A DNA stretch of 32,000 bases from Luteimonas abyssi. Lineage in GTDB: Bacteria; Pseudomonadota; Gammaproteobacteria; Xanthomonadales; Xanthomonadaceae. A program made the position numbers and the translations under genes. Of this stretch, positions 214 to 14,065 are shown one piece after another; within the stretch, counting starts at the first letter, position 1; every line of letters starts with the position of its first letter. Below the pieces are notes generated by a model. The model was not told the DNA's origin, did not search any database, and saw nothing but the letters and a program-made list of their open reading frames with translations. Where the stretch lies: positions 289,023 through 321,022 of the forward strand of contig NZ_KQ759763.1 in assembly GCF_001482195.1 (NCBI RefSeq). Direction: 5' to 3'.

Positions 214-918
214 TCATCGGGCGAGTTCGGCATCGGCATCGTCCACTAGGGGCTCCAGCGCGCGCCAGACGTGATCGCGCAGGGCCGGCTGGACGGCCGC
301 GGTCGGATGCATGTTGTCGGACTGGAAGCCCGAACGGTCCAGGGCGATCGGCTCGAGCAGGAACGGCAGCAACGGGATGTCGAAGAACCCGGCGAGCTGG
401 GTATAGACGCCTTCGAATCCCAGGGTGTAATCCGCGCCGAGATTGGGCGGCATGCGCATGCCGACCAGCAACACGCGGGCGCCGACGAACTCCGATGCAC
501 CGATCATGCGCGCGAGGTTGCGGCGCATCTCGCGCAGCGGCAGGCCGCGCAGGCCGTCGTTGGCACCGAGAGCGATCACCACCACCGCCGGGCGTTCGCG
601 CACGACCGCGTCGACGATGCGCGCCGAGCCGCCGGCCGTGGTTTCGCCGCTGATGCTGGCATTGACCACGCGCCAGTCGGGGTGCTGCTCGCGCAGATCG
701 CTTGCGAGCAGGCCGACCCAGCCTTCATGTGCGGCCATGCCGTAGCCGGCGCTCAACGAATCGCCCATCACCAGCAGGGTACGGGTGGGGGGTGACGCGG
801 TGTGCGTGGCCGCGGGCGATTGCGCCCAGCCTGCAGCCGAGGTCAGCAGGGCGAGGCAGGCGAGCAGCCAGGCGGCGGCGCGATGCGGGCGAGCGGCGAA
901 CGGAGACACGAACGACAT
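214..918 (-). CDS. tesA: SGNH/GDSL hydrolase, TesA-like acyl-CoA thioesterase I / arylesterase (secreted)
   Basis: In ORF 214..984 I prefer the internal ATG at 918, because it gives the signal peptide MSFVSPFAARPHRAAAWLLACLALLTSAAGWAQ. GDS catalytic block (LLVMGDSLSAGYG), GAND block (IALGANDGLRG), C-terminal D..HP block (SDNMHPT). Divergent from ybbA-ybbP, as in E. coli tesA. Confidence 0.8.
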   Translation of the reverse strand: MSFVSPFAARPHRAAAWLLACLALLTSAAGWAQSPAATHTASPPTRTLLVMGDSLSAGYGMAAHEGWVGLLASDLREQHPDWRVVNASISGETTAGGSARIVDAVVRERPAVVVIALGANDGLRGLPLREMRRNLARMIGASEFVGARVLLVGMRMPPNLGADYTLGFEGVYTQLAGFFDIPLLPFLLEPIALDRSGFQSDNMHPTAAVQPALRDHVWRALEPLVDDADAELAR

Positions 919-1103
919 GGAGGCGTGCACGAAGTGGGGAACGAACACGATAGCCCAGCCTGGCCTCCGCCAGACCGAGCGCACGGTGAACGGGGCGCAG
1001 CGTCCCGAGTTTCAGGCATGCGGTCCCGCGCGGGGAGCCCGTACACTCGGTCGTTCATGTTCGGGCTCGAGATCCGCACCAGCGGCCGCCCGCCTCCATA
1101 CCG

Positions 1104-1856
1104 ATGCCAGGAAGTCGCATGCCCGATTCGCCGTCCGCGCCCGTCGCCTCCGCCCACGCCTCGTCCGCATTCGCCGCGCCTGCCCGGCAGCCTGCCCTGC
1201 GCGTCCGCGATCTCGGCAAGCGGGTGGCCCTGCCCGACAGTGCGCTGACGATTCTCGACGGCATCGGCTTCGACATCGCACAGGGCGAAACCGTCGCCAT
1301 CGTCGGAGCGTCGGGTTCGGGCAAGAGCACGCTGCTGTCGCTGCTGGCCGGGTTGGACCTGCCCTCGTCGGGCGAGATCGAACTCGACGGCACCGCGCTG
1401 TCGGTACTGGACGAAGACGGTCGTGCCCGCGTGCGCGCCGACAAGGTCGGCTTCGTGTTCCAGAACTTCCAGTTGCTGCCGTCGCTGACCGCACTGGAGA
1501 ACGTGATGCTGCCGCTCGAGCTGCGCGGCGACGCCGATGCGCGCGGACCGGCCGAGGCGGAGCTGACCCGGGTCGGGCTGGGCGAGCGCCTGGGGCATTA
1601 CCCGCGCCAGTTGTCCGGTGGCGAGCAGCAGCGCGTCGCCCTGGCGCGCGCCTTCGTGACGCGTCCGTCGCTGCTGTTCGCCGACGAACCCACCGGCAAC
1701 CTCGACACCCGCACCGGGCAATCGGTGATCGAGCTGCTGTTCGCGATGAATGCCGATGCCGGCACCACCCTGGTGCTGGTGACACACGACGACCACCTCG
1801 CCGCGCGCTGCGGCCGCGTGCTGCGCATCGACAGCGGGCGGCTGGTGGACGCATGA
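1104..1856 (+). CDS. ybbA: ABC transporter ATP-binding protein (YbbA/LolD-like)
   Basis: Walker A GASGSGKST, ABC signature LSGGEQQRVALARA, Walker B LLFADEPTGNLD, H-loop VTHD. The start could instead be the ATG at 1119. The stop overlaps the next gene's start (ATGA at 1853-1856). Confidence 0.85.
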   Translation: MPGSRMPDSPSAPVASAHASSAFAAPARQPALRVRDLGKRVALPDSALTILDGIGFDIAQGETVAIVGASGSGKSTLLSLLAGLDLPSSGEIELDGTALSVLDEDGRARVRADKVGFVFQNFQLLPSLTALENVMLPLELRGDADARGPAEAELTRVGLGERLGHYPRQLSGGEQQRVALARAFVTRPSLLFADEPTGNLDTRTGQSVIELLFAMNADAGTTLVLVTHDDHLAARCGRVLRIDSGRLVDA

Positions 1857-4351
1857 GGACCGTACGCCTCGCCTGGACCCAGTTCGCCCGCGACCTCGCC
1901 GCTGGCGAAGTGCGCATCATGCTGGCCGCGCTGGTGCTGGCGGTGCTGGCGGTGAGCGCGGTGGGTTTCGTGACCGACCGTGCCGAGCGTGCGCTGACGC
2001 AGCAGGCCAATCGTCTGCTCGGCGGCGACGCGGTGCTGCGGTCCGATGCCCCCATCGACGCCGCGGTGACCGCCGCGGCCGATGCCGCCGGCCTGCAGCA
2101 CACCGCGACGGTCGAGCTCGACAGCATGATCCGCGTCGGCGACGACCTGCGCCTGGGCGACCTCAGCGCGCTGGGCGAGGGTTACCCGCTGCGCGGAGCG
2201 TTCCGGATCGCCGAGCGTGGCGACGGCGACGATCGCGAAGCGGACGGCATTCCGGCGCCGGGCACGGTCTGGCTCAGCCGCGCGGGTGCCGACACGCTGG
2301 ATGCACGGGTCGGCGACACCGTGTCGCTGGGCGAAGCGCAGTTGCGCCTGGCGGCCCTGGTCACCCAGGAGCCCGACGCCTCGATCGATTACTTCAATGT
2401 CGCGCCCAAGGTCTTCCTCAACGTCGCGGACCTGGAGGCGACCGGGCTGGTGCAGGAAGGCAGCCGGATCCGCTACCGGCTCGTGGTGGCCGGCGACCAG
2501 GATGCCGTGGAGCGTTTCGCCGGCGGTCTGCGCGACGATCTCGGACGTGGCCAGCGGTTGGAAACCATCCAGGATGCGCGGCCGGAAATCCGCTCGGGTC
2601 TCGATCGCGCCGGGCGTTTCCTGGGCCTGGCGGCGCTGGTCTCGGTGGTGCTGGCGGCGGTCGCGGTGGCGATGGCCGCGCGCCGGCACAGCGAACGCCA
2701 TCTGTCCGGCGTCGCGGTGATGCGCTGCCTCGGCGCGAGCCAGCGCACGCTGGTGGGGATCCACGTGGGCGAGCTGGTGCTGCTTGGCCTCCTCGCCAGC
2801 GCGATCGGCGTGGTGCTGGCGTTCGGCCTGCAGTGGGCGGTCGGCGGCTGGATCGCGCGCACGCTCGAACTGGAACTTCCCGGCGCCGGCTGGCTGCCGG
2901 CGCTCGAAGGCCTCGGCGTGGGCATGGTGGTGCTGCTGGCCTTCGGTGCGCCGCCGGTGCTGGCCCTGCGCCGCGTACCGGCATTGCGGGTGATCCGTCG
3001 CGATCTCGACCCGGTGGAGCCGGCGGCGCTCGCGGTCGCCCTGGCCGGGTTCGTCGGCCTGGGCGCCTTGTTGTGGTGGAAGGCCGGCTCGGCCGATCTC
3101 GCCGGCGCCATGCTCGGCGGCATTCTCGCCACGCTGGCGGTCCTGGCGTCGATCGCCTGGGCGTTGATCGCCCTGGTGCGGCGCTTGCGTGGGCGTCTGC
3201 GCGGCGGCCTGCGCTATGGTCTGGCGAATGTGAGTCGGCGCGCTGGGGCCAGCATCGCGCAGGTCTCGGCGCTCGGGCTCGGCCTGATGGCGTTGCTGCT
3301 GCTGACCTTCGTGCGCACCGATCTGCTCGACCGCTGGCAGCTGCAGCTGGCCGAGAATGCGCCCAATCGTTTCATCGTCAATGTGCAACCGCATCAGCTC
3401 GACCCGGTGCGCGTCTTCATGGACGAACGCGGTCTGGAGGCGCCGGAGCTGTTTCCGATGGTCCGCGCGCGCCTGGCTGCACGCAACGGCGAACCGGTGA
3501 CCGGCGAGACCTATGCCGGCGAGGATGAGCAGACCCGCCGCCGCGCCGAGCGCGAGTTCAACCTGTCGATGTCCGGCGATCTGCGCGACGACAACCGTGT
3601 GGTGGACGGGCAGTTCTGGACCGGCACGCCGGCCACGCCGGAGTTCTCGGTGGAGGAGAACTTCGCCAGCCAGCTCGGCTGGCAGGTCGGCGACCGCATC
3701 GTCTTCGACATCGCCGGCCAGCCCTTGGAGGCGCCGATCACCAGCCTGCGCAGCGTGGATTGGGAAAGCTTCCGGCCGAACTTCTTCGTGCTCGCCTCGC
3801 CCGGCGCGCTGGACGGCTACCCGGCCAGCTACATCACCGCGGTGAGCGTGCCGCCGGAGCAGACCCGCTTCACCGCGGATCTGGTCGGCGCGTTCCCGAA
3901 CCTGTCGGTAGTCGATGTCGACGCGGTGCTGGCGCAGGTCCGCACCACGGCCGATCAGGTGTCGGTGGTGGTGCAGGCGGTGTTCTGGTTCTCGCTGGTC
4001 GCGGGCGTGCTGGTGCTGCTGGCGGCGGTGAGCGCCAGCCAGGACGAACGCCTGCTGGAGGGCGGGGTGATGCGCGTGCTCGGCGGCAGCCGCCGGCAAC
4101 TGCGCATGGCCCAGGCCACCGAATTCGCCGCCATCGGCCTGCTGGCCGGCCTTGTCGCGGCCATCGCCGCCTCGGTGCTGTCGGGCGTCATCGCCACCCG
4201 CGTGTTCGACCTGCCCTGGCAGCCGAACTGGAGCATGGCCGCCTTCGGCGGCGTCTTGGGCATGGCGATGACCCTGCTGGCCGGCATGATCGCCACCCGC
4301 CGCGTGGTGGACGCCCCTCCGGCGTTGACGTTGCGGGAGTTGCAGGGCTAG
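1853..4351 (+). CDS. ybbP: ABC transporter permease, FtsX-like, YbbP family (832 aa)
   Basis: Lies in frame inside ORF 785..4351. The real start is taken as ATG 1853 (MRTVRLAWTQFARDL...) because it overlaps the ybbA stop. Two FtsX-type membrane modules separated by large soluble loops; size and pairing with ybbA match E. coli YbbP. Confidence 0.8.
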   Translation: MRTVRLAWTQFARDLAAGEVRIMLAALVLAVLAVSAVGFVTDRAERALTQQANRLLGGDAVLRSDAPIDAAVTAAADAAGLQHTATVELDSMIRVGDDLRLGDLSALGEGYPLRGAFRIAERGDGDDREADGIPAPGTVWLSRAGADTLDARVGDTVSLGEAQLRLAALVTQEPDASIDYFNVAPKVFLNVADLEATGLVQEGSRIRYRLVVAGDQDAVERFAGGLRDDLGRGQRLETIQDARPEIRSGLDRAGRFLGLAALVSVVLAAVAVAMAARRHSERHLSGVAVMRCLGASQRTLVGIHVGELVLLGLLASAIGVVLAFGLQWAVGGWIARTLELELPGAGWLPALEGLGVGMVVLLAFGAPPVLALRRVPALRVIRRDLDPVEPAALAVALAGFVGLGALLWWKAGSADLAGAMLGGILATLAVLASIAWALIALVRRLRGRLRGGLRYGLANVSRRAGASIAQVSALGLGLMALLLLTFVRTDLLDRWQLQLAENAPNRFIVNVQPHQLDPVRVFMDERGLEAPELFPMVRARLAARNGEPVTGETYAGEDEQTRRRAEREFNLSMSGDLRDDNRVVDGQFWTGTPATPEFSVEENFASQLGWQVGDRIVFDIAGQPLEAPITSLRSVDWESFRPNFFVLASPGALDGYPASYITAVSVPPEQTRFTADLVGAFPNLSVVDVDAVLAQVRTTADQVSVVVQAVFWFSLVAGVLVLLAAVSASQDERLLEGGVMRVLGGSRRQLRMAQATEFAAIGLLAGLVAAIAASVLSGVIATRVFDLPWQPNWSMAAFGGVLGMAMTLLAGMIATRRVVDAPPALTLRELQG

Positions 4352-7082: not shown

Positions 7083-8705
7083 ATGGGTGATCCCGTGAGC
7101 CCGGTCGAGAAGCGGATCGACCTGTTGGCGCGGTTGTGGCTGGAGGTGGCGCAGACCCCGGATCTGCGCGTGGTGGTCTGGCGGATTCCTCCGAACGCCG
7201 ATGCCATGCTGGGCGCGTTCTTCGAAGCGCACCGGCAGGCGGACGAGGCGTTGACGCCCGATCTGTTCGTGACCTTCGATACCGCATTCGACACCGGTTT
7301 CGGCTACAGCCGCGCGCTGATCGACGCGTTGTGGGAGGGCTACGCCAACAGCCGCGAGACATTGATCGACCAGGGGGTCGGCATCGGCTGGCGCGGCGCG
7401 CACGAGACCTGGTCCGACTCGGCCAGCGGCGTCGTGGGCATGTTCGCGTCGTTCGCCGATCACCATCGCGCACGGATGCGGTTCTTCGTGCCGGTATTGA
7501 TGCCGTCGCAGGTCCTGGGGGTGGAAGCGTTCGGGCACTGGATCGATCATGCGGTCGGCGCCATCGCGGACGCGCCGATCCGGCTGGCGCTCGTCGATCA
7601 TGCGGACAATCCGCATTGGGACGCCCTGCAGGCGCGGCATCCGGATCACGTCCGGATCGTGGAGGCGCCGATCGACATGTTCGACATCGCCCGCGAGACC
7701 GCCGCGCAGGCCGGCGGCGCGGGCCCCGCGGTCGCCTACCGGCAGATGTTCACCGACGTGCTGGCGGCCACCGAAAAGGGCTCCGCCGCACAGGCGGCCT
7801 CGCGTGCGGACAGGGCCCTGGCGCTGGCGGCGCGGCAGGGGTGGCACGACCAGCAGGCCGCGCTGAACATGACTGTCGCCGGCGCGCACCTGAAGGAGCG
7901 CGACACCGCCAAGGCGATCGCCCGCTATCGCGCCGCGCGCGAGAACGGCGCGCAGGCGCACGCGGCGGGCAACCCGGCCGGCCTGCACCTGGTGATGCAG
8001 GCCTGGTTCGGTGAAGGCGGTGCGTGGTTCCTGGCCGACCAGCCCGAACGTGCGGCCGAGGCCTATCTGGGCGGTGCGGAGGCCGCGCGCAGCGTGCCCA
8101 ACCCGATGTTCGCCCTGGAAGGGCAACGCATGGCCGGCTTCTGCCTGGCGCGCGCGCGTCAGCACGGGCCGGCGCAGGGACACTACCTGCGCGGTCTCCG
8201 CGACGCTCGCGACATGGCCCCCGACGACCGCCCCATGACCACGTTGCCGTTGCTGCTGCAGGACATGCTGCGGCTGGAGGACGCCTCGCGTACCGGCAGG
8301 CTCGAAGCCGTGGCGGAGGGCTACCAGCGCCGTGTCGCCGACGCACAGGCCGAGGCCGAACGCGACGCCTCGCGTCTCGGCCAGCAGCCGGACCCGAAGG
8401 CGATCCGGCGGATCGAGGCACGGATGGAAGATCGCTTCGGGCAGGCGTTCGATGCATCGCGCCAGGAGCGCGAGCGCCTGATCGCCGGTGGCAACGAAAT
8501 GTTCCGCAAGATCGTATCCGTCGGGCGCGACTATCTGCACGACGGCTGGAACGGGCTGCCCGACATCAAGCATCCGCTCGATGCCGAGCCGGCCACCTGG
8601 GAGGCATTGCCGGAGTACGCGCAGTTGCCGGATGCGGCCTCCCTCGAAGACGACGGCGCCGGGACGGCCGCCGCGGAGCCCATCGCCATGGAGAAGACGG
8701 CATGA
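7083..8705 (+). CDS. Uncharacterised 540-aa soluble protein, alpha-helical/TPR-like middle region; candidate T6SS adaptor/chaperone for the downstream Rhs effector
   Basis: Starts 19 nt after the vgrG stop, with SD GGGAGAG 5 nt upstream of the ATG. Its stop overlaps the Rhs start (ATGA at 8702-8705). GC3-rich codon usage in this frame. No signal peptide or TM segment seen. Ala-rich helical repeats at about aa 230-400 and an acidic C-terminal tail. I do not recognise DUF4123, DUF2169 or DUF1795 signatures. Confidence 0.75.
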   Translation: MGDPVSPVEKRIDLLARLWLEVAQTPDLRVVVWRIPPNADAMLGAFFEAHRQADEALTPDLFVTFDTAFDTGFGYSRALIDALWEGYANSRETLIDQGVGIGWRGAHETWSDSASGVVGMFASFADHHRARMRFFVPVLMPSQVLGVEAFGHWIDHAVGAIADAPIRLALVDHADNPHWDALQARHPDHVRIVEAPIDMFDIARETAAQAGGAGPAVAYRQMFTDVLAATEKGSAAQAASRADRALALAARQGWHDQQAALNMTVAGAHLKERDTAKAIARYRAARENGAQAHAAGNPAGLHLVMQAWFGEGGAWFLADQPERAAEAYLGGAEAARSVPNPMFALEGQRMAGFCLARARQHGPAQGHYLRGLRDARDMAPDDRPMTTLPLLLQDMLRLEDASRTGRLEAVAEGYQRRVADAQAEAERDASRLGQQPDPKAIRRIEARMEDRFGQAFDASRQERERLIAGGNEMFRKIVSVGRDYLHDGWNGLPDIKHPLDAEPATWEALPEYAQLPDAASLEDDGAGTAAAEPIAMEKTA

Positions 8706-9080
8706 CGGTCGCCGCCAAGCATTTCGATCCCCAGTTGGGGATCGACATCCACATGTACGTGTTTCCGCCGTTACCGCTGCCGATTCCATTGCCGACGCCA
8801 CACATCGGCATCGTCATGGATCCGTTCGACTACATCCCGGTGATCGGCGCCAAGACCCACGTCAACGGCGTCAAGCGCGCGTCGGCGGCCAGCATGGGGC
8901 TGGACATCCACATCCCGCTGGGCCTCTTCCATCCGGCCTTCGCGCCCAAATTGCCCACGGGGCCGCATTTCGACGACGAGATCTTCATGGGCAGCAAGAC
9001 GGTGGCGGCCGACGGCCTGCCGTTCTCGCGGCTGACGATGCCGGTGCTCAGCTGTCAGGCGTTCGGGATGATCGCCCCCG
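8702..9080 (+). other. PAAR-like domain of the Rhs effector (extended class with Pro-rich loops)
   Basis: AAKHFDP...DIH aligns with AARxGDxxxH. GAKTHVNGVKRASAAS and GSKTVAADGLPFSRLTMPVLSC align with GSxxVxINGxPAARxGDxxxC. The Pro-rich PPLPLPIPLPTPHIG loop resembles extended PAAR proteins as I remember them. Needs HMM confirmation. Confidence 0.65.
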
Positions 9081-12000
9081 TGCGACCGAACAAGCCGAAG
9101 CCGAAGAAGCTGTCGCTGGTGCTGCCGACCACGCTCAACGTGGCGATCCCGAACAATGTCGTCGTCGGCGGGCCACCCACGGTATCGCTGCTCGCGGTGT
9201 TGATGCGGGGAGGATTCGCCCTCCTGGGCAAGCTCAACCGGACGTTCCGGCTCACCCAGCGTGCGGGTGCGGCGTTCCGGCGGTTCCGGCAGCACGCGTT
9301 CCGCAACATGAAGCCGGGCAACCTCAAGTGCAACGTCCTGCGTGCCGAGCCGGTCGATATCCGCGACGGCAGCGTCTCGGTGGTGCACGAGGACTTCGTG
9401 GTGCCCGGACGCCTGCCACTGACGTGGACGCGCGAATACGCTTCGGGCGATCGGTACGAGGGTGCATGCGGGCACGGCTGGCAGAGCCCGGCCGATGTCA
9501 GGCTGGAGTTCGACGCGGCGGATGACGTCGTCTTGCTGCACGGTCTGGGCGGCGTCAGCGTGTTTCCCGAGCGCCCCGGCGCGCCCGAAGACGGCGACGT
9601 GGTCGAGCCCATCGACGGCGCCCGTCTGGAACTCCACCGTGGCGCGGCCGGCGACGAATGGCGGGTGCGGACCAAGGACGGCCTGATCCAGTGCTTCATC
9701 GCGGCGCCGGCCGGTGTCGCCGCCATCGGCCCGCGGGTGCTGCAGATCGCACGCATCGAGGATCGCTGCGGCAATCACTGGCGGTTCGAGCGCAAGGACG
9801 GGCACCTGGTCCGCATCGTCGAAAGCGGTAGCACGGATGCGGACGGCACGCCGTTGCAGGGGCGTTACATCGAGGTGGACGCCCGCCACGGCCGCATCGA
9901 AGGTCTGCGGTTGTTCGATCCGCAGAGCGGTCTGCACCATCCGCTCGTACGCTATCGCTACGACGCCGCGGGCGACCTGGTCGCCGCCATCGACCCGCTC
10001 GGCGCCGAGCGCACGTTCGAGTATGTGCAGCACCGCATGGTCCGGCACACCGACCGCCTGGGGCTGTCCTTCAGCTACGCCTACAACGCGCGTTGGCAGG
10101 TCGTCCACGCCTGGGGCGATCATGGTCTCTACGACTATCGCTTCCGCTACGACGATGTGCTGAACGACGTCGAGATCACCGATTCTCTCGGCCACGTCTC
10201 GATCGTCAAGTTCGACGCGTACCGCCTGCCCCTGTGCGAGATCGATCCGCTCGATGGCGTGACGGTCTTCGAGTACGACGACTACGGGCGAACCACCGCC
10301 ATCGTCGACCCGATGGGCCTGCGCACCGAGTTCGCCTACGATGCGCGTGGCAACCAGACCCGTCTGGTCCAGCCCGACGGCACCGCCGTGGTCAGCGAGT
10401 ACGACGCCGACGACAACCTCGTGACGGTGACCGACCCGGGTGGCCATGCCTGGCGCCAGCACAGCGATGCGCGCGGGCTGTTGCGCGAGCAGGTCGATCC
10501 GCTCGGCGCGACGACGCGCTACGACTACGACGCCCATGGGCAGTTGATCGTGCATGCGAGCGCCCGTGGGGCGATCACCCGGATCCAGTACGACCGGCAC
10601 GGGCAATTGGCGGGTGTGATCGATCCGATGGGCCATTCCAGCCGGTTCGACCACGACGCGCTGGGCCGGCTGCTGCAACAGCATGATCCGCTCGACCAGG
10701 TGACGACCTACAGCTACGACGCCAAGGGCCGGCTGCTGGACGTGCGTTCGCCGGGCGGCGGGCAGGTGCGTTGCGAATACGACGCGGAGGATCAACTGAT
10801 CCGCTATGTGGACGAGGCCGGCGCACAGACCCGGTTGCAGTACGTGGGCATCGGCCAGATCGCCAAGCGGATCCAGCCGGACGGGCATACGGTGGAGTAC
10901 CACTACGACACCGAAGAGCAGCTGGTCGGACTGACCAATCAGCGCGGCGAACGTCACGAACTCAAGCGCGATGCGCTGGGACGCATCGTCGAGGAAGTGG
11001 ACTATTGGGGCCAGGCGCGTCGCTACGAGTACGACGCCGCAGGCCGCTTGCGCGCCACTATCGACCCGCTCGGACAGCGGATCGGCTTCGACACCGATCC
11101 GCTGGGTCGCATCGTCCGCAAGCGGTTACCGGATCTGCGGCAGCCGGGTCGGCAGGTGACCGAGGGCTTCAAGTACGACGCGCTCGGGCAACTGGTCGAA
11201 CTGCGCAATCCCAGCCGGCATGCCGTGCGCCGGTTCGATCCCGCCGGACGCCTGGTCGAAGAGGTTCAGGACGGCTTTGCGGTGACATGCGGGTACGACG
11301 CCGACGGCAACCGCACGCTGCGCGAGACCGGCGCGGGCCATCGGGTCGCGTGCACCTACGACCTGCGCGGGCAGGTGATCGAGATCGGCATCGACGACGA
11401 AGCGCCGATCCGTATCGAGCGGGACGCGCTCGGTCGTGCCACCCACGAACAGCTTGGCGAGCACGTCCAGCGTCGCTTCGACTACGACGCGCGCAACCTG
11501 CTGACCGCGCAGCGCGTCCTGCGCGATGTCGCGCCGCTGTTCGACACCGCCTACGGCTACGACACCGCCGGCAACCTCACCCGGCGCGCCGACAGCCAGC
11601 AGGGCACCGACGAATACCGCTACGACATCCTCGGCCGGCTGCTGCAGCACACCGATCCGAAATCGCGCGTGGAACGCTTCTTCAACGATCCGGCCGGCGA
11701 CCGCCTGCAGACCCGAATCCACGAGGTGAAGCTGCGCAAGGTGGTGGGCGGCGAGGACGAGGATCAGGTCCAGTGGACGCGCGAGGGCACCTACGAGGGC
11801 GTGCATTACGTGTTCGACCGCGCCGGCGACCTGATCCGCAAGGGCCGCCCCGGCGGCCCGGATGCCGGCGATCTGGACCTGGTCTGGGACGCCAACCATC
11901 GCCTGGCCGAGAGTCGCCGCGGCGGCCAGACCACCACCTACGGTTACGACCCGCTGGGCCGGCGCGTGTTCAAGCGCAATCCCACCCACACCACGTGGTT

Positions 12001-13393
12001 CTACTGGGACGGCGACGCCCTGCTGGGCGAAGTGAAGCAGGCCAACGACGACCCCGAGGCCGCGCCGCTGTGGGTCGGCAACGTGGCCGATCTGGCGGGG
12101 GCTCGCAAGCGGCGGGACCGGTTGAAGGCGTTGCATGCGCGCACGCGGGAGTACGTGTACTACCCGGGGACCTTCGTGCCGTTGGCGTTGATCGATCCCC
12201 CTGTCGCCATGGGCACGTCGAGTCAGAACATCGCCGTAGATGATGCGCAGAAGCCGCATTCGGGCCCCGTCGGATCGGCGTCCTCGCGGGACCTGCCTGG
12301 AGCGGCGCCGCAAGCCACGGCTGGACGGGGCGTGCCAGCCGATCCCGGCACCTCCGGGCTGGGCCTGCCGGGGGGACTGCACCTGCGGGCATCCGCACAG
12401 CACGTCGCCCTAGGGGATCGCCCAGCGTCGGGCCTTGTCCTGGGCGGGGCGGGGGCGGTGTTGGGGGCGGGCCGCGTGTTGGACGGGGGACGTGGGAAAG
12501 AGACCGTGCTGGGCGGCGATGTCGCTCCCGGGGCCGGCATCCCACGGCCTGGGAACGGCGGTCGCGAGGTCGAGGCGGTGGCGGGTCCTGCGGGTCGGCG
12601 CAAGGACGTTCCGGCGCTCCCCCGTCCGCGGCCGGGCGCAACCGAAGACGCCCAGTCGAACACAACGAACCGCGTGTTTCATTTTCATGTGGATCCCAAT
12701 GGATGCCCTTTCCGATTGAGCGGCTCGTCCGGGCAGATCGTATGGTCGGGCACCTTGACCGCCTGGGGCCTCATGGCCGATGCGGGCGGGAGCAGTATCG
12801 ACAATCCGCTCCGATTCCAGGGGCAGTACTTCGACGAAGAAACGGGACTGTCCTACAACAGATATCGATACTACGACCCCCACACGGGACAGTACGTGGG
12901 ACGCGATCCCATCGGTCTGCTGGGTGGCATGAATCCGTACCAGTACGGTCCCAACGGGCAGCAGTGGATCGACCCGCTCGGTCTGGCCAAGGCGAAGATC
13001 GACCCGGCCACCGGCGTTCACAGGATGCCGCCCTGGATGCCGGGCATGCGTGGCTGGGAGAGGCAACATCTCGTGCCCTTCGCGGTCTGGCGCGACTTCA
13101 TGCCGCAGTTGACGCAACTGGGTCTGACCATGGCGGATGTCAACGGTGCACACAACATGATGTACATGCCGCGATTCGCGTCCGCGAGGCCGGCGCAGTA
13201 TCCCAACATGGGCTTGCATCGCGGCTTCCATCCGATGCATACCGCATACAATCAGCGCGTCGCCCGCGAACTCCGCCAACTCATGGCCGGCCTTCAGGGC
13301 AGGAGCTCCTCCGAGGCGAGGGCGGCATTCAGGCAGTTCCAGTTCAGTCTCAGACAGAGAACCCGGACGGGTCGGGTTACGTGCGCGAGGTAG
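8702..13393 (+). CDS. PAAR-domain Rhs-family polymorphic toxin (T6SS effector), 1563 aa
   Basis: In frame inside ORF 8024..13393. The start is taken at ATG 8702 (SD GGAG 8 nt upstream; overlaps the upstream stop). N-terminal PAAR-like domain. DUF6531-like segment (RAEPVDIRDGSVSVVHEDFVVPGRLPLTWTREYAS...GHGWQSP). Dozens of YD repeats (YDAAGDLVAAIDPLG, YDARGNQTRLVQPDG, YDAHGQL, YDAKGRLL...). Rhs core end motif (NPLRFQGQYFDEETGLSYNRYRYYDPHTGQYVGRDPIGL ... QQWIDPLGL), followed by a 135-aa C-terminal extension. Confidence 0.95.
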   Translation: MTVAAKHFDPQLGIDIHMYVFPPLPLPIPLPTPHIGIVMDPFDYIPVIGAKTHVNGVKRASAASMGLDIHIPLGLFHPAFAPKLPTGPHFDDEIFMGSKTVAADGLPFSRLTMPVLSCQAFGMIAPVRPNKPKPKKLSLVLPTTLNVAIPNNVVVGGPPTVSLLAVLMRGGFALLGKLNRTFRLTQRAGAAFRRFRQHAFRNMKPGNLKCNVLRAEPVDIRDGSVSVVHEDFVVPGRLPLTWTREYASGDRYEGACGHGWQSPADVRLEFDAADDVVLLHGLGGVSVFPERPGAPEDGDVVEPIDGARLELHRGAAGDEWRVRTKDGLIQCFIAAPAGVAAIGPRVLQIARIEDRCGNHWRFERKDGHLVRIVESGSTDADGTPLQGRYIEVDARHGRIEGLRLFDPQSGLHHPLVRYRYDAAGDLVAAIDPLGAERTFEYVQHRMVRHTDRLGLSFSYAYNARWQVVHAWGDHGLYDYRFRYDDVLNDVEITDSLGHVSIVKFDAYRLPLCEIDPLDGVTVFEYDDYGRTTAIVDPMGLRTEFAYDARGNQTRLVQPDGTAVVSEYDADDNLVTVTDPGGHAWRQHSDARGLLREQVDPLGATTRYDYDAHGQLIVHASARGAITRIQYDRHGQLAGVIDPMGHSSRFDHDALGRLLQQHDPLDQVTTYSYDAKGRLLDVRSPGGGQVRCEYDAEDQLIRYVDEAGAQTRLQYVGIGQIAKRIQPDGHTVEYHYDTEEQLVGLTNQRGERHELKRDALGRIVEEVDYWGQARRYEYDAAGRLRATIDPLGQRIGFDTDPLGRIVRKRLPDLRQPGRQVTEGFKYDALGQLVELRNPSRHAVRRFDPAGRLVEEVQDGFAVTCGYDADGNRTLRETGAGHRVACTYDLRGQVIEIGIDDEAPIRIERDALGRATHEQLGEHVQRRFDYDARNLLTAQRVLRDVAPLFDTAYGYDTAGNLTRRADSQQGTDEYRYDILGRLLQHTDPKSRVERFFNDPAGDRLQTRIHEVKLRKVVGGEDEDQVQWTREGTYEGVHYVFDRAGDLIRKGRPGGPDAGDLDLVWDANHRLAESRRGGQTTTYGYDPLGRRVFKRNPTHTTWFYWDGDALLGEVKQANDDPEAAPLWVGNVADLAGARKRRDRLKALHARTREYVYYPGTFVPLALIDPPVAMGTSSQNIAVDDAQKPHSGPVGSASSRDLPGAAPQATAGRGVPADPGTSGLGLPGGLHLRASAQHVALGDRPASGLVLGGAGAVLGAGRVLDGGRGKETVLGGDVAPGAGIPRPGNGGREVEAVAGPAGRRKDVPALPRPRPGATEDAQSNTTNRVFHFHVDPNGCPFRLSGSSGQIVWSGTLTAWGLMADAGGSSIDNPLRFQGQYFDEETGLSYNRYRYYDPHTGQYVGRDPIGLLGGMNPYQYGPNGQQWIDPLGLAKAKIDPATGVHRMPPWMPGMRGWERQHLVPFAVWRDFMPQLTQLGLTMADVNGAHNMMYMPRFASARPAQYPNMGLHRGFHPMHTAYNQRVARELRQLMAGLQGRSSSEARAAFRQFQFSLRQRTRTGRVTCAR
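12197..12673 (+). other. ~159-aa Gly/Ala/Pro-rich low-complexity insertion within the Rhs core domain
   Basis: Lies between the conserved YYPGTFVPLALID and VFHFHVDPNGCPFRLSG...VWSGTLTAWG core elements. In Rhs proteins I know, these are separated by only a short loop. The reading frame stays open throughout. Confidence 0.7.
12986..13390 (+). other. Rhs C-terminal toxin domain, putative HNH/EndoVII-fold nuclease of the AHH-like clade
   Basis: Begins right after DPLGL (nt 12971-12985). Pattern ERQHLVP...DVNGAHNMMYMP...GLHRGFHPMHTAYNQRVARELRQL matches the AHH-family layout (AHH-[LI][IV]P ... N..N...LP ... H.G.H..Y...V). The AHH triad reads RQH here (His1456). Confidence 0.5.
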
Positions 13394-13400
13394 CACATTG

Positions 13401-13937
13401 ATGGCCGAAGGATGTTTCCAACTCTTGAGTCCGAGCCGGTTCGGTGATTTCTCGATCGCAATGCGAGGAGAGGACGAATACGGGACCGGGTACTTCGTCG
13501 ACGGAGTCACCGAGGCGATCGAGATCGCCCGCGTGGATGTCGACGTGGATGTGAGCATCCAGGCCTTCCGCAAGGCTGCGCCGGATTACTTGCAGACGAC
13601 GAAGGGAGTGCCTCTTGTCTCACAGGCGTTCAGAGACGAGGCGCTTGTCCACTTTGCGAACGACATCGACGTCGTCGAGGCGCAGTTGCATCTTAATGGA
13701 GGGACTGTCGATTTCTTCGCGCTGCGGTTGAAGGCATTGGCGCTGATCGACGTCGATAGGTCGCTGTTCTCGGACATCGGTGGTATCCGGATACTGACCG
13801 ATCCCGTGTTCGATCCATCAGTGCCGGACTTCTATCTGGCCCGCGACGAGGCGTTCAGGGACTTCATCGTTGCGTCCGGTGCGCTGGTCGCGCTGATCGT
13901 CGATAAAAAACTGCGAGTGGAGTACATGCAGTATTGA
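13401..13937 (+). CDS. Putative cognate immunity protein for the Rhs C-terminal toxin (178 aa, cytoplasmic, acidic)
   Basis: ATG at 13401, 7 nt after the Rhs stop. The track begins the ORF at TTG 13398 and lists it as 179 aa. GAGG lies 10 nt upstream of the ATG. Same strand as the toxin, no signal peptide or TM segment. Clearly more A/T-ending codons than the flanking genes (gat aaa aaa ctg cga; ctt aat gga). Family not recognised. Confidence 0.6.
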   Translation: MAEGCFQLLSPSRFGDFSIAMRGEDEYGTGYFVDGVTEAIEIARVDVDVDVSIQAFRKAAPDYLQTTKGVPLVSQAFRDEALVHFANDIDVVEAQLHLNGGTVDFFALRLKALALIDVDRSLFSDIGGIRILTDPVFDPSVPDFYLARDEAFRDFIVASGALVALIVDKKLRVEYMQY

Positions 13938-14065
13938 GGCCGTATCGAGGCCGTCGACTGGCACGGGCTGTCATGCATTGAGAGACCGGCGCACCTCCAC
14001 TGTTTTCCGGATCCAAGCGAAGGCAGTCGCCGGCCGCACGCCCACCTGCCCCACTCGTGCTGTAC

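Follow-up and report, generated by a model that had tools for sequence, protein, structure and literature searches.

V2a of Agrobacterium tumefaciens 1D1609 is said to have been described by Santos et al. in 2020 as a type VI secretion system (T6SS) Tox-AHH DNase. Toxins of the AHH family (Pfam PF14412) occupy the C-terminus of polymorphic toxins, Rhs proteins among them, are partnered by Imm11-type immunity proteins and have been summarized by the conserved signature '[AG]HH, N, H, H, Y' (PMC3113570, PMC3482391). AHH tips have been reported on T6SS effectors of Agrobacterium, Vibrio, Acinetobacter, Pseudomonas, Neisseria, and Stenotrophomonas, and the characterised toxins V2a, Txe2, VP1415, and Rhs2 are DNases (PMC10902643, PMC9990079). 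PF14412 is found on the antibacterial effectors Txe2 (Pseudomonas plecoglossicida), VP1415 (Vibrio parahaemolyticus), Rhs2 (Acinetobacter baumannii), and Nte5 (Neisseria cinerea), and likewise on the secreted antibacterial type IV secretion system (T4SS) effectors XAC3266 and Smlt4382 (PMC9990079, PMC8263058); several of these toxins ride on Rhs or PAAR carriers, and published work credits the group with DNase activity or with a toxicity that immunity proteins neutralise. Here, we analysed a 32,000-nucleotide (nt) stretch of Luteimonas abyssi DNA (contig NZ_KQ759763.1, positions 289,023 to 321,022; hereafter the window), in which an Rhs effector gene behind vgrG ends in a tip of 135 amino acids (aa) whose family-naming tripeptide reads R-Q-H. 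To our knowledge, none of Txe2, VP1415, Rhs2, Nte5, XAC3266, and Smlt4382 carries this tripeptide. Our preferred interpretation, to which we assign a probability of roughly 0.7, is that the tip is the toxic end of a T6SS-delivered Rhs effector and acts as an active metal-dependent nuclease, a Gln oxygen standing in for the His nitrogen.

How does this locus compare with its described relatives? With the AHH family at large, the Luteimonas tip shares the position on an Rhs toxin, a putative Imm11-type partner, the [LIV][IV]P behind the catalytic His, the conserved Asn, two further His, and the Tyr. It differs by its R-Q-H, in which A/G gives way to Arg (as in most of its sub-family) and the His published as a metal ligand to Gln, and by a third motif spaced H-x6-H-x2-YN. 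V2a shares the link to vgrG, the C-terminal AHH domain of the His-Me finger type and the downstream immunity gene, and in its AlphaFold model, too, the catalytic His ends strand 1 with further His in helices (PMC10902643). In contrast to the Luteimonas tip with its Gln, however, V2a is a true AHH toxin with a required H385, and it is a non-Rhs effector according to the published description with which we compared it. A relative from the same R-Q-H sub-family is found in Proteus mirabilis, where a cluster of 136 orphan Rhs C-termini (that of P0025) carries PF14412 after DPLGL, with the motifs GYQRQHLIPY, GLHRGWTKEH, and TGKLTCA. This relative is 32–35% identical to the Luteimonas domain, varying with the alignment used, belongs to a large QRQH clade and takes the form of short orphan fragments rather than full-length Rhs proteins. 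We also considered N. cinerea Nte5, which is toxic and neutralised by immunity (Nti5), as a possible R-Q-H member, but it does not seem to be one: the ends deduced for nte5 and nti5 from published primers (...PKRLD and ...NLDSYWD) mismatch the Neisseria R-Q-H toxins and their immunity gene, in a comparison that covered the 3′ ends only and one Neisseria immunity gene (L002). We came across no account of a QH variant of AHH in the literature searched, and databases simply annotate the R-Q-H proteins as AHH-domain or RHS proteins. The combination of VgrG, Rhs shell, AHH tip, and Imm11-type immunity is an ordinary one, and the point of difference, a modest one, is the eponymous tripeptide.

Membership of the tip in the AHH family is supported first of all by Pfam. 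The AHH model matches well beyond what chance would give, with E = 1.4e-7 (31.9 bits, the gathering threshold being 22.3), covering domain residues 14–110 and profile positions 7–97 of 111 (domain residues 1–135 correspond to aa 1429–1563, such that H28 is His1456 and H85 is His1513). AHH was the sole toxin family found, as LHH, WHH, SHH, GHH, HNH, and colicin DNase gave no Pfam match to the tip even at E <= 10; NCBIfam held no match for either the tip or the immunity protein. A first-pass annotation, made from the sequence letters, had proposed an AHH-like toxin and named SHH, GHH, LHH, and Tox-HNH as related models; the former is borne out above the curated cut-off, and none of the latter matched. 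By its sequence the tip is an outlier. When it alone was used in a word-indexed search of 5.8 billion proteins, zero homologs were returned. Exhaustive HMMER comparison with 1.84 billion representatives yielded 21 proteins at E <= 1e-3 (best identity 59%), and a profile built from these relatives retrieved 26, several of them annotated as 'AHH domain-containing protein' and all except two short fragments containing PF14412. AHH is matched individually by each of the 19 aligned closest relatives (best E = 4.8e-19), and the chain of homologs leads without a break from the tip to canonical SAHH sequences. P0012, a metagenome match whose C-terminus reads ...SVSYTHLDVYKRQ..., presumably a translated sequencing-adapter artefact, was left out of the alignments.

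The tail holds the ordered motifs WERQHLVP, NGAHNMMYMP, and GLHRGFHPMHTAYN, exactly as the first-pass annotation had described them (Table 1). Their anchor, H-[LIV]-[IV]-P, aligns unambiguously between the canonical LSAHHVIPV, the [YF][QE]RHHIIP of most of the sub-family and the WERQHLVP of the query; alignment with SAHH and RHH relatives thus assigns the first-His column to Gln1455 (caa, 13064–13066) and the Ala column to Arg1454, and the two substitutions called earlier stand. Over 42 relatives, the first-His column contains His in 30 and Gln in 12, and the column of His1456 (cat, 13067–13069) is His throughout (42/42), H1456-L-V-P fitting the published [LIV][IV]P context. In the full alignment of 45 sequences, Pro1490 and His1513 are invariant (45/45 each), and Tyr1516 (43), Asn1485 (42), His1506 (37), and Asn1517 (35) are widely kept. 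Relative to the published signature, five of six conserved positions are retained: N, H, H, and Y are all present, and R-Q-H (aa 1454–1456) replaces the [AG]-H-H tripeptide.

Other parts of the initial description needed revision. Of the His residues it had singled out, H1456, H1506, and H1513 are conserved, whereas H1510 is not: its column is N, T, K, or S in almost all sequences, and His occurs only in the query and P0001 (2/45) plus L001, its closest relatives. H1510 is therefore a poor target for mutagenesis, for which H1506, H1513, and Q1455 are better suited. The third motif does not follow the layout H.G.H..Y but is spaced H-x6-H-x2-Y-N, and the arginines of the tail, which had been taken to suit nucleic-acid binding, are not conserved, unlike G1557 and C1561 ('G..TC'). 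The choice it had left between an altered active site and a separate sub-clade is borne out as well, R-Q-H being kept both in the query's own clade and in a second, larger one. Given this tripeptide and the 30-to-12 split of its first-His column, the tip is, judged by its alignments, a member of a divergent AHH sub-clade rather than a canonical one.

Table 1 Features of the Rhs effector locus (window coordinates, all on the + strand)
Feature	Start	End	Strand	Details
Toxin domain, AHH-family His-Me finger (predicted nuclease)	12986	13390	+	aa 1429–1563, 135 aa; stop 13391–13393
Strand beta-1, W-E-R-Q-H	13055	13069	+	aa 1452–1456; from alignment with SAHH/RHH relatives and model
N-G-A-H-N-M-M-Y-M-P	13142	13171	+	aa 1481–1490; omega-loop Asn1485, strand beta-2 to Pro1490
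H-R-G-F-H-P-M-H-T-A-Y-N	13217	13252	+	aa 1506–1517; His1506 and His1513 predicted metal ligands
G-R-V-T-C	13370	13384	+	aa 1557–1561; conserved Gly and the domain's sole Cys
Rhs effector gene	8702	13393	+	1563 aa + stop; continuous open reading frame; Luteimonas abyssi WP_058833650.1, exact protein-collection match
Rhs core end, DPIGL-x17-DPLGL	12905	12985	+	aa 1402–1428; read straight from the sequence
Immunity gene, putative diverged Imm11-like	13401	13937	+	178 aa + stop; WP_157515122.1, annotated 'hypothetical protein'
vgrG, T6SS spike protein	4751	7063	+	770 aa; Pfam Phage_GPD (E = 5e-88), Gp5_trimer_C, Phage_base_V
Conserved 540-aa protein between vgrG and rhs	7083	8705	+	stop overlaps rhs start (ATGA)

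Is the Gln real? A sequencing error or a recent pseudogenising mutation was excluded, since Gln also occurs in relatives that are 75% and 59% identical, and both of its codons are in use in different genera. The former is the toxin of a Rhodanobacter metagenome-assembled genome (L001), the latter is P0001, and both read WERQH. Scanning genomes for related loci with an alignment restricted to R-Q-H sequences, we found further such toxins in Neisseria, Oxalobacteraceae, Aquitalea, Chitinolyticbacter, Xenorhabdus, Pelistega, Pseudomonas silvicola, Mangrovibacter, and an Enterobacteriaceae bacterium. The tripeptide is kept in two groups: the query's clade, comprising Luteimonas, Rhodanobacter, and one metagenome, and a larger one with Neisseria, Proteus, Xenorhabdus, Pseudomonas, and Aquitalea. 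Among 12 aligned R-Q-H sequences (30–59% identical to the query), R26, Q27, H28, P31, N57, P62, L77, H78, G80, H85, Y88, N89, G129, and C133 are invariant (domain numbering). Over 12 loci, CAA and CAG encode the Gln equally often (six times each), and neighbouring codons vary synonymously. His and Gln codons lie one third-position base apart. A neighbour-joining tree keeps the query trio (ERQH) apart, RHH lineages lying between it and the large QRQH clade; over 100 bootstraps computed with the Q/H column removed, the trio was monophyletic in 100, the large clade in 78 and all Gln-bearing sequences together in none. This suggests that the His/Gln exchange occurred at least twice and was retained, although the event count is provisional, based as it is on BLOSUM62 distances over ~120 columns. 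Invariant in the 12 sequences, encoded by both codons and never monophyletic, the Gln is under purifying selection.

The predicted fold places these residues where a His-Me finger nuclease would have them. Based on an alignment of 37 sequences, AlphaFold 2 (AF2) returned a model with a predicted local distance difference test score (pLDDT) of 94.9 and a predicted template modelling score (pTM) of 0.88; an earlier single-sequence model (pLDDT 60.5) was discarded in its favour. In domain numbering, the model consists of a strand at 24–28 (W-E-R-Q-H), a helical omega loop at 32–53, a second strand at 58–62 (M-M-Y-M-P), a loop and two helices at 83–102 and 108–127. His1456 closes strand 1, Asn1485 comes before strand 2, and the first turn of the helix includes His1513. 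In described His-Me fingers, the catalytic His likewise sits C-terminally in strand 1, the omega loop supplies an Asn and the first turn of the helix a metal-binding His or Asn, with a further ligand often +4 or +8 along the helix (PMC5714182); here, the position +4 from His1513 is the conserved Asn1517. By this order of secondary-structure elements, through which we assessed the fold, the tip is predicted to be a His-Me finger (HNH/EndoVII, beta-beta-alpha) of the AHH family. Among predicted viral structures, the three best Foldseek matches, all with probability 1.00 and template modelling (TM) scores of 0.50–0.58, were prasinovirus proteins, one of them from a Bathycoccus virus; prasinoviruses have been listed as carriers of Tox-AHH (PMC3482391).

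Taken as the toxic end of the effector, the tip might act as follows. The Rhs shell would enclose the domain, the aspartyl-protease motif DPIGL...DPLGL would free it, and the VgrG encoded upstream would ferry the effector into a neighbouring cell. There, His1456 at the end of strand 1 would serve as the general base acting on water, as its counterparts do in the family, and a single divalent metal, presumably bound by His1513, His1506, and possibly Asn1517, would polarise the scissile DNA phosphodiester. Gln1455 might contribute an oxygen ligand, either directly or through water, in the manner of Asp or Glu in other His-Me nucleases. The product of the Imm11-like gene 7 nt downstream would shield the producer. 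Such a scheme draws on what has been described for LHH, WHH, and AHH domains: of the two dyad His, the leading one binds metal and the following one directs the water, and another pair of His close to the helix matches, in alignment, the C-terminal metal ligands of classical HNH domains (PMC3113570). Members of the superfamily carry D, E, or H directly before the catalytic His, often as a metal-binding residue (PMC5714182). The substrate is likely to be DNA, given the DNase activity of the AHH toxins characterised elsewhere. The competence of the Gln we infer from its conservation.

Several points weigh against this scheme. The H385A mutation of V2a, which puts Ala in place of the first His, abolished both toxicity and plasmid degradation (PMC10902643); the first-His position is thus not dispensable, and the Gln substitution is unproven. 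No experimentally characterised R-Q-H toxin was found in the literature searched, and both the substrate (DNA or RNA) and the identity of the metal are inferred. Foldseek against the PDB gave no match better than E = 6.7. Searches of the PDB by sequence and by profile returned nothing relevant, the best profile match being a basic leucine zipper (bZIP) coiled coil reached via the helical tail. We found no solved AHH-domain structure either, the PDB column for AHH being empty in the classification table of PMC5714182. Within Rhs aa 1–215 (window 8702–9346), Pfam detected neither PAAR nor DUF4150. The colicin E9 DNase, whose sequence we verified against 1bxi_B, also failed to align significantly in a profile–profile comparison with hhalign (probability 0.3%), the sole local match laying WERQHLVP on YELHHDKP. 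In colicin E9, H102 is the metal ligand and H103 the general base. This HH dyad would correspond to the xH dyad of the tip, and in the colicin E9/E7 DNases (PDB 1bxi), too, two helix-associated His bind the metal (PMC3113570); the Luteimonas domain differs, however, in its much longer, helical omega loop and in an immunity protein that is Imm11-like rather than Im9-like.

What else could the Gln signify? One alternative keeps the fold and the family but lets the exchange accompany a changed property: a different metal preference (Mg2+/Mn2+ through an oxygen ligand as opposed to a His-rich Zn2+/Ni2+ site), RNA as substrate, nicking instead of degradation, or a metal site completed by Cys1561. 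That Gln is fixed in two separate clades and not drifting speaks for such a change, and so does the fact that some His-Me toxins, Tke2 and Tke4, are reported as DNase/RNase (table in PMC9990079). The large Gln clade furthermore deviates at other motif positions, reading GLHRGWT where others have SLHxGWN. However, P0006 pairs R-Q-H with the SLHNGWN of the RHH group, which rules out a strict co-variation of Q/H with these two motifs. A further indication, the C-terminal G-x-x-T/K-C with its single Cys, is invariant in the R-Q-H alignment, and we found no discussion of a terminal Cys in the parts of the AHH literature consulted; C1561 could be structural or a metal ligand. Yet a Cys near the C-terminus is equally present in most RHH and canonical SAHH relatives, and is therefore not a Gln-specific compensation. 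Altogether, we consider such a changed property unlikely.

Alternatively, the loss of a metal-binding His might have left a weakened or dead AHH relic, a remnant or a mere nucleic-acid binder. The inactive V2a mutant, altered at the same position, would fit such a relic, and inactive groups of His-Me fingers are known (PMC5714182). Those groups, however, lost the catalytic His, whereas His1456 is invariant here and N1485, H1506, H1513, and Y1516 are retained as well. A relic is also difficult to reconcile with a Gln that is under purifying selection in both synonymous codons, with a full-length Rhs gene behind vgrG that on reading has no frameshift or premature stop, and with an intact immunity gene that follows the toxin in many genera, for such co-conservation would be pointless beside a harmless toxin. 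We thus regard a relic as very unlikely. That His, Asn, and Pro fell into an AHH-like order by chance on an unrelated toxin fold might be argued from the missing PDB and colicin E9 matches, but it is barely credible in view of the Pfam score above the gathering threshold, the continuous homologs to canonical SAHH proteins, the high-confidence model with His-Me topology and the viral structural matches.

The putative immunity gene downstream has its start codon (ATG 13401) 7 nt past the toxin stop. The encoded protein has no direct match in Pfam, but the gene following the Rhodanobacter toxin encodes a protein 50% identical to it (E = 2e-59), and tblastn located weaker homologs just downstream of the R-Q-H toxins of P. 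silvicola (E = 9e-13), Xenorhabdus, Mangrovibacter, Enterobacteriaceae B14, and Oxalobacteraceae. When the downstream genes of the other R-Q-H toxins were made into a profile, this open reading frame (ORF) was its sole match among the 303 of the window (E = 3.9e-17), and four of those downstream genes match Pfam Imm11, three of them above the cut-off. Imm11 is a published partner of Tox-AHH, Tox-HNH, and Tox-SHH (PMC3482391). With no Pfam match of its own and a link through the profile of R-Q-H neighbours, the assignment of this gene as a diverged Imm11 (PF07791) is transitive. Across tip and immunity gene, the G+C content drops to 0.57–0.65, as compared to 0.67–0.77 on both sides (window 12600–13950) and 0.69–0.77 in the Rhs core, consistent with horizontal exchange of a toxin–immunity cassette. 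A scan for promoters and terminators around the module revealed nothing above shuffle expectation. In related loci, typical polymorphic-toxin arrays are seen (L003, 3390–4616; L002, 1343–2806; L010, 1245–2483): the Oxalobacteraceae locus has the toxin followed by two tandem Imm11-like genes, and in the Neisseria and Enterobacteriaceae loci the R-Q-H toxin–immunity pair is followed downstream by orphan fragments of Rhs C-termini that bear other tips.

The carrier is an Rhs protein with Pfam matches to DUF6531, to PF03527 (the RHS core) and, in 15 stretches, to RHS_repeat (E = 2e-75), ending in DPxGL-x(n)-DPxGL ahead of a variable tip. The ORF was listed as 8024–13393, yet ATG 8702 (MTVAAKHF...) is the plausible start and agrees with the residue numbering of the first-pass annotation. 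DPIGL spans aa 1402–1406 (nt 12905–12919) and DPLGL aa 1424–1428 (nt 12971–12985). This context is that of Rhs C-terminal autoproteolysis, which releases the tip and would do so here. The canonical self-cleavage context noted earlier at the end of the core is indeed present, but nt 12971–12985, given for QQWIDPLGL, hold DPLGL only, the longer string occupying 12959–12985. In the relatives, too, D[PV]xGL directly precedes the toxin, be it on Rhs proteins or on orphan Rhs C-termini. A Gly/Ala/Pro-rich low-complexity insert of 157 aa (window 12197–12667, Rhs aa 1166–1322) interrupts the C-terminal conserved part of the Rhs core between ...YVYYPGTFVPLALID and FHFHVDPNG, with a local G+C content of up to 0.77; L001 has an insert of unrelated sequence at the same Rhs site. 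The Rhs N-terminus, MTVAAKHFDPQLGIDIH..., opens with an AAK-x-x-D string, which we take to be reminiscent of the prePAAR motif AARxxDxxxH.

Upstream, vgrG lies on the same strand as rhs, at a distance of 1.6 kb. The 540-aa protein encoded between them has no Pfam domain. It has 76 homologs of about 510–590 aa (32–58% identity), which some sources name a TPR (tetratricopeptide repeat) protein, in Lysobacter, Xanthomonas translucens, X. oryzae, and X. maliensis, Stenotrophomonas, Collimonas, Pantoea, Kosakonia, and Erwinia, and it may represent an undescribed family of T6SS adaptors or chaperones for this class of Rhs proteins. Further upstream of vgrG, an unrelated 1188-aa ORF (window 785–4351, + strand) contains two FtsX-like permease C-terminal domains (E = 1.3e-19).

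What, then, does a Gln in this position mean for AHH toxins? The His that gave the family its name, and which is needed by V2a, the one canonical toxin in which it was mutated, is naturally a Gln in conserved, immunity-protected toxins from many genera, including common ones of Proteus mirabilis and Neisseria. Consequently, motif rules by which AHH toxins are called 'active' should allow for QH. We hold it to be rather unlikely that the His-to-Gln swap, made at least twice and kept, marks a real change in active-site chemistry, for example from a His-rich transition-metal site to an oxygen-based Mg2+/Mn2+ site or to one that includes the terminal Cys. If true, this would mean that the HH dyad is not required in the AHH family, and the metal dependence or susceptibility of R-Q-H toxins could differ. 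Comparing Q1455H with the wild-type tip would be a natural experiment on how His-Me finger nucleases choose and hold their metal.

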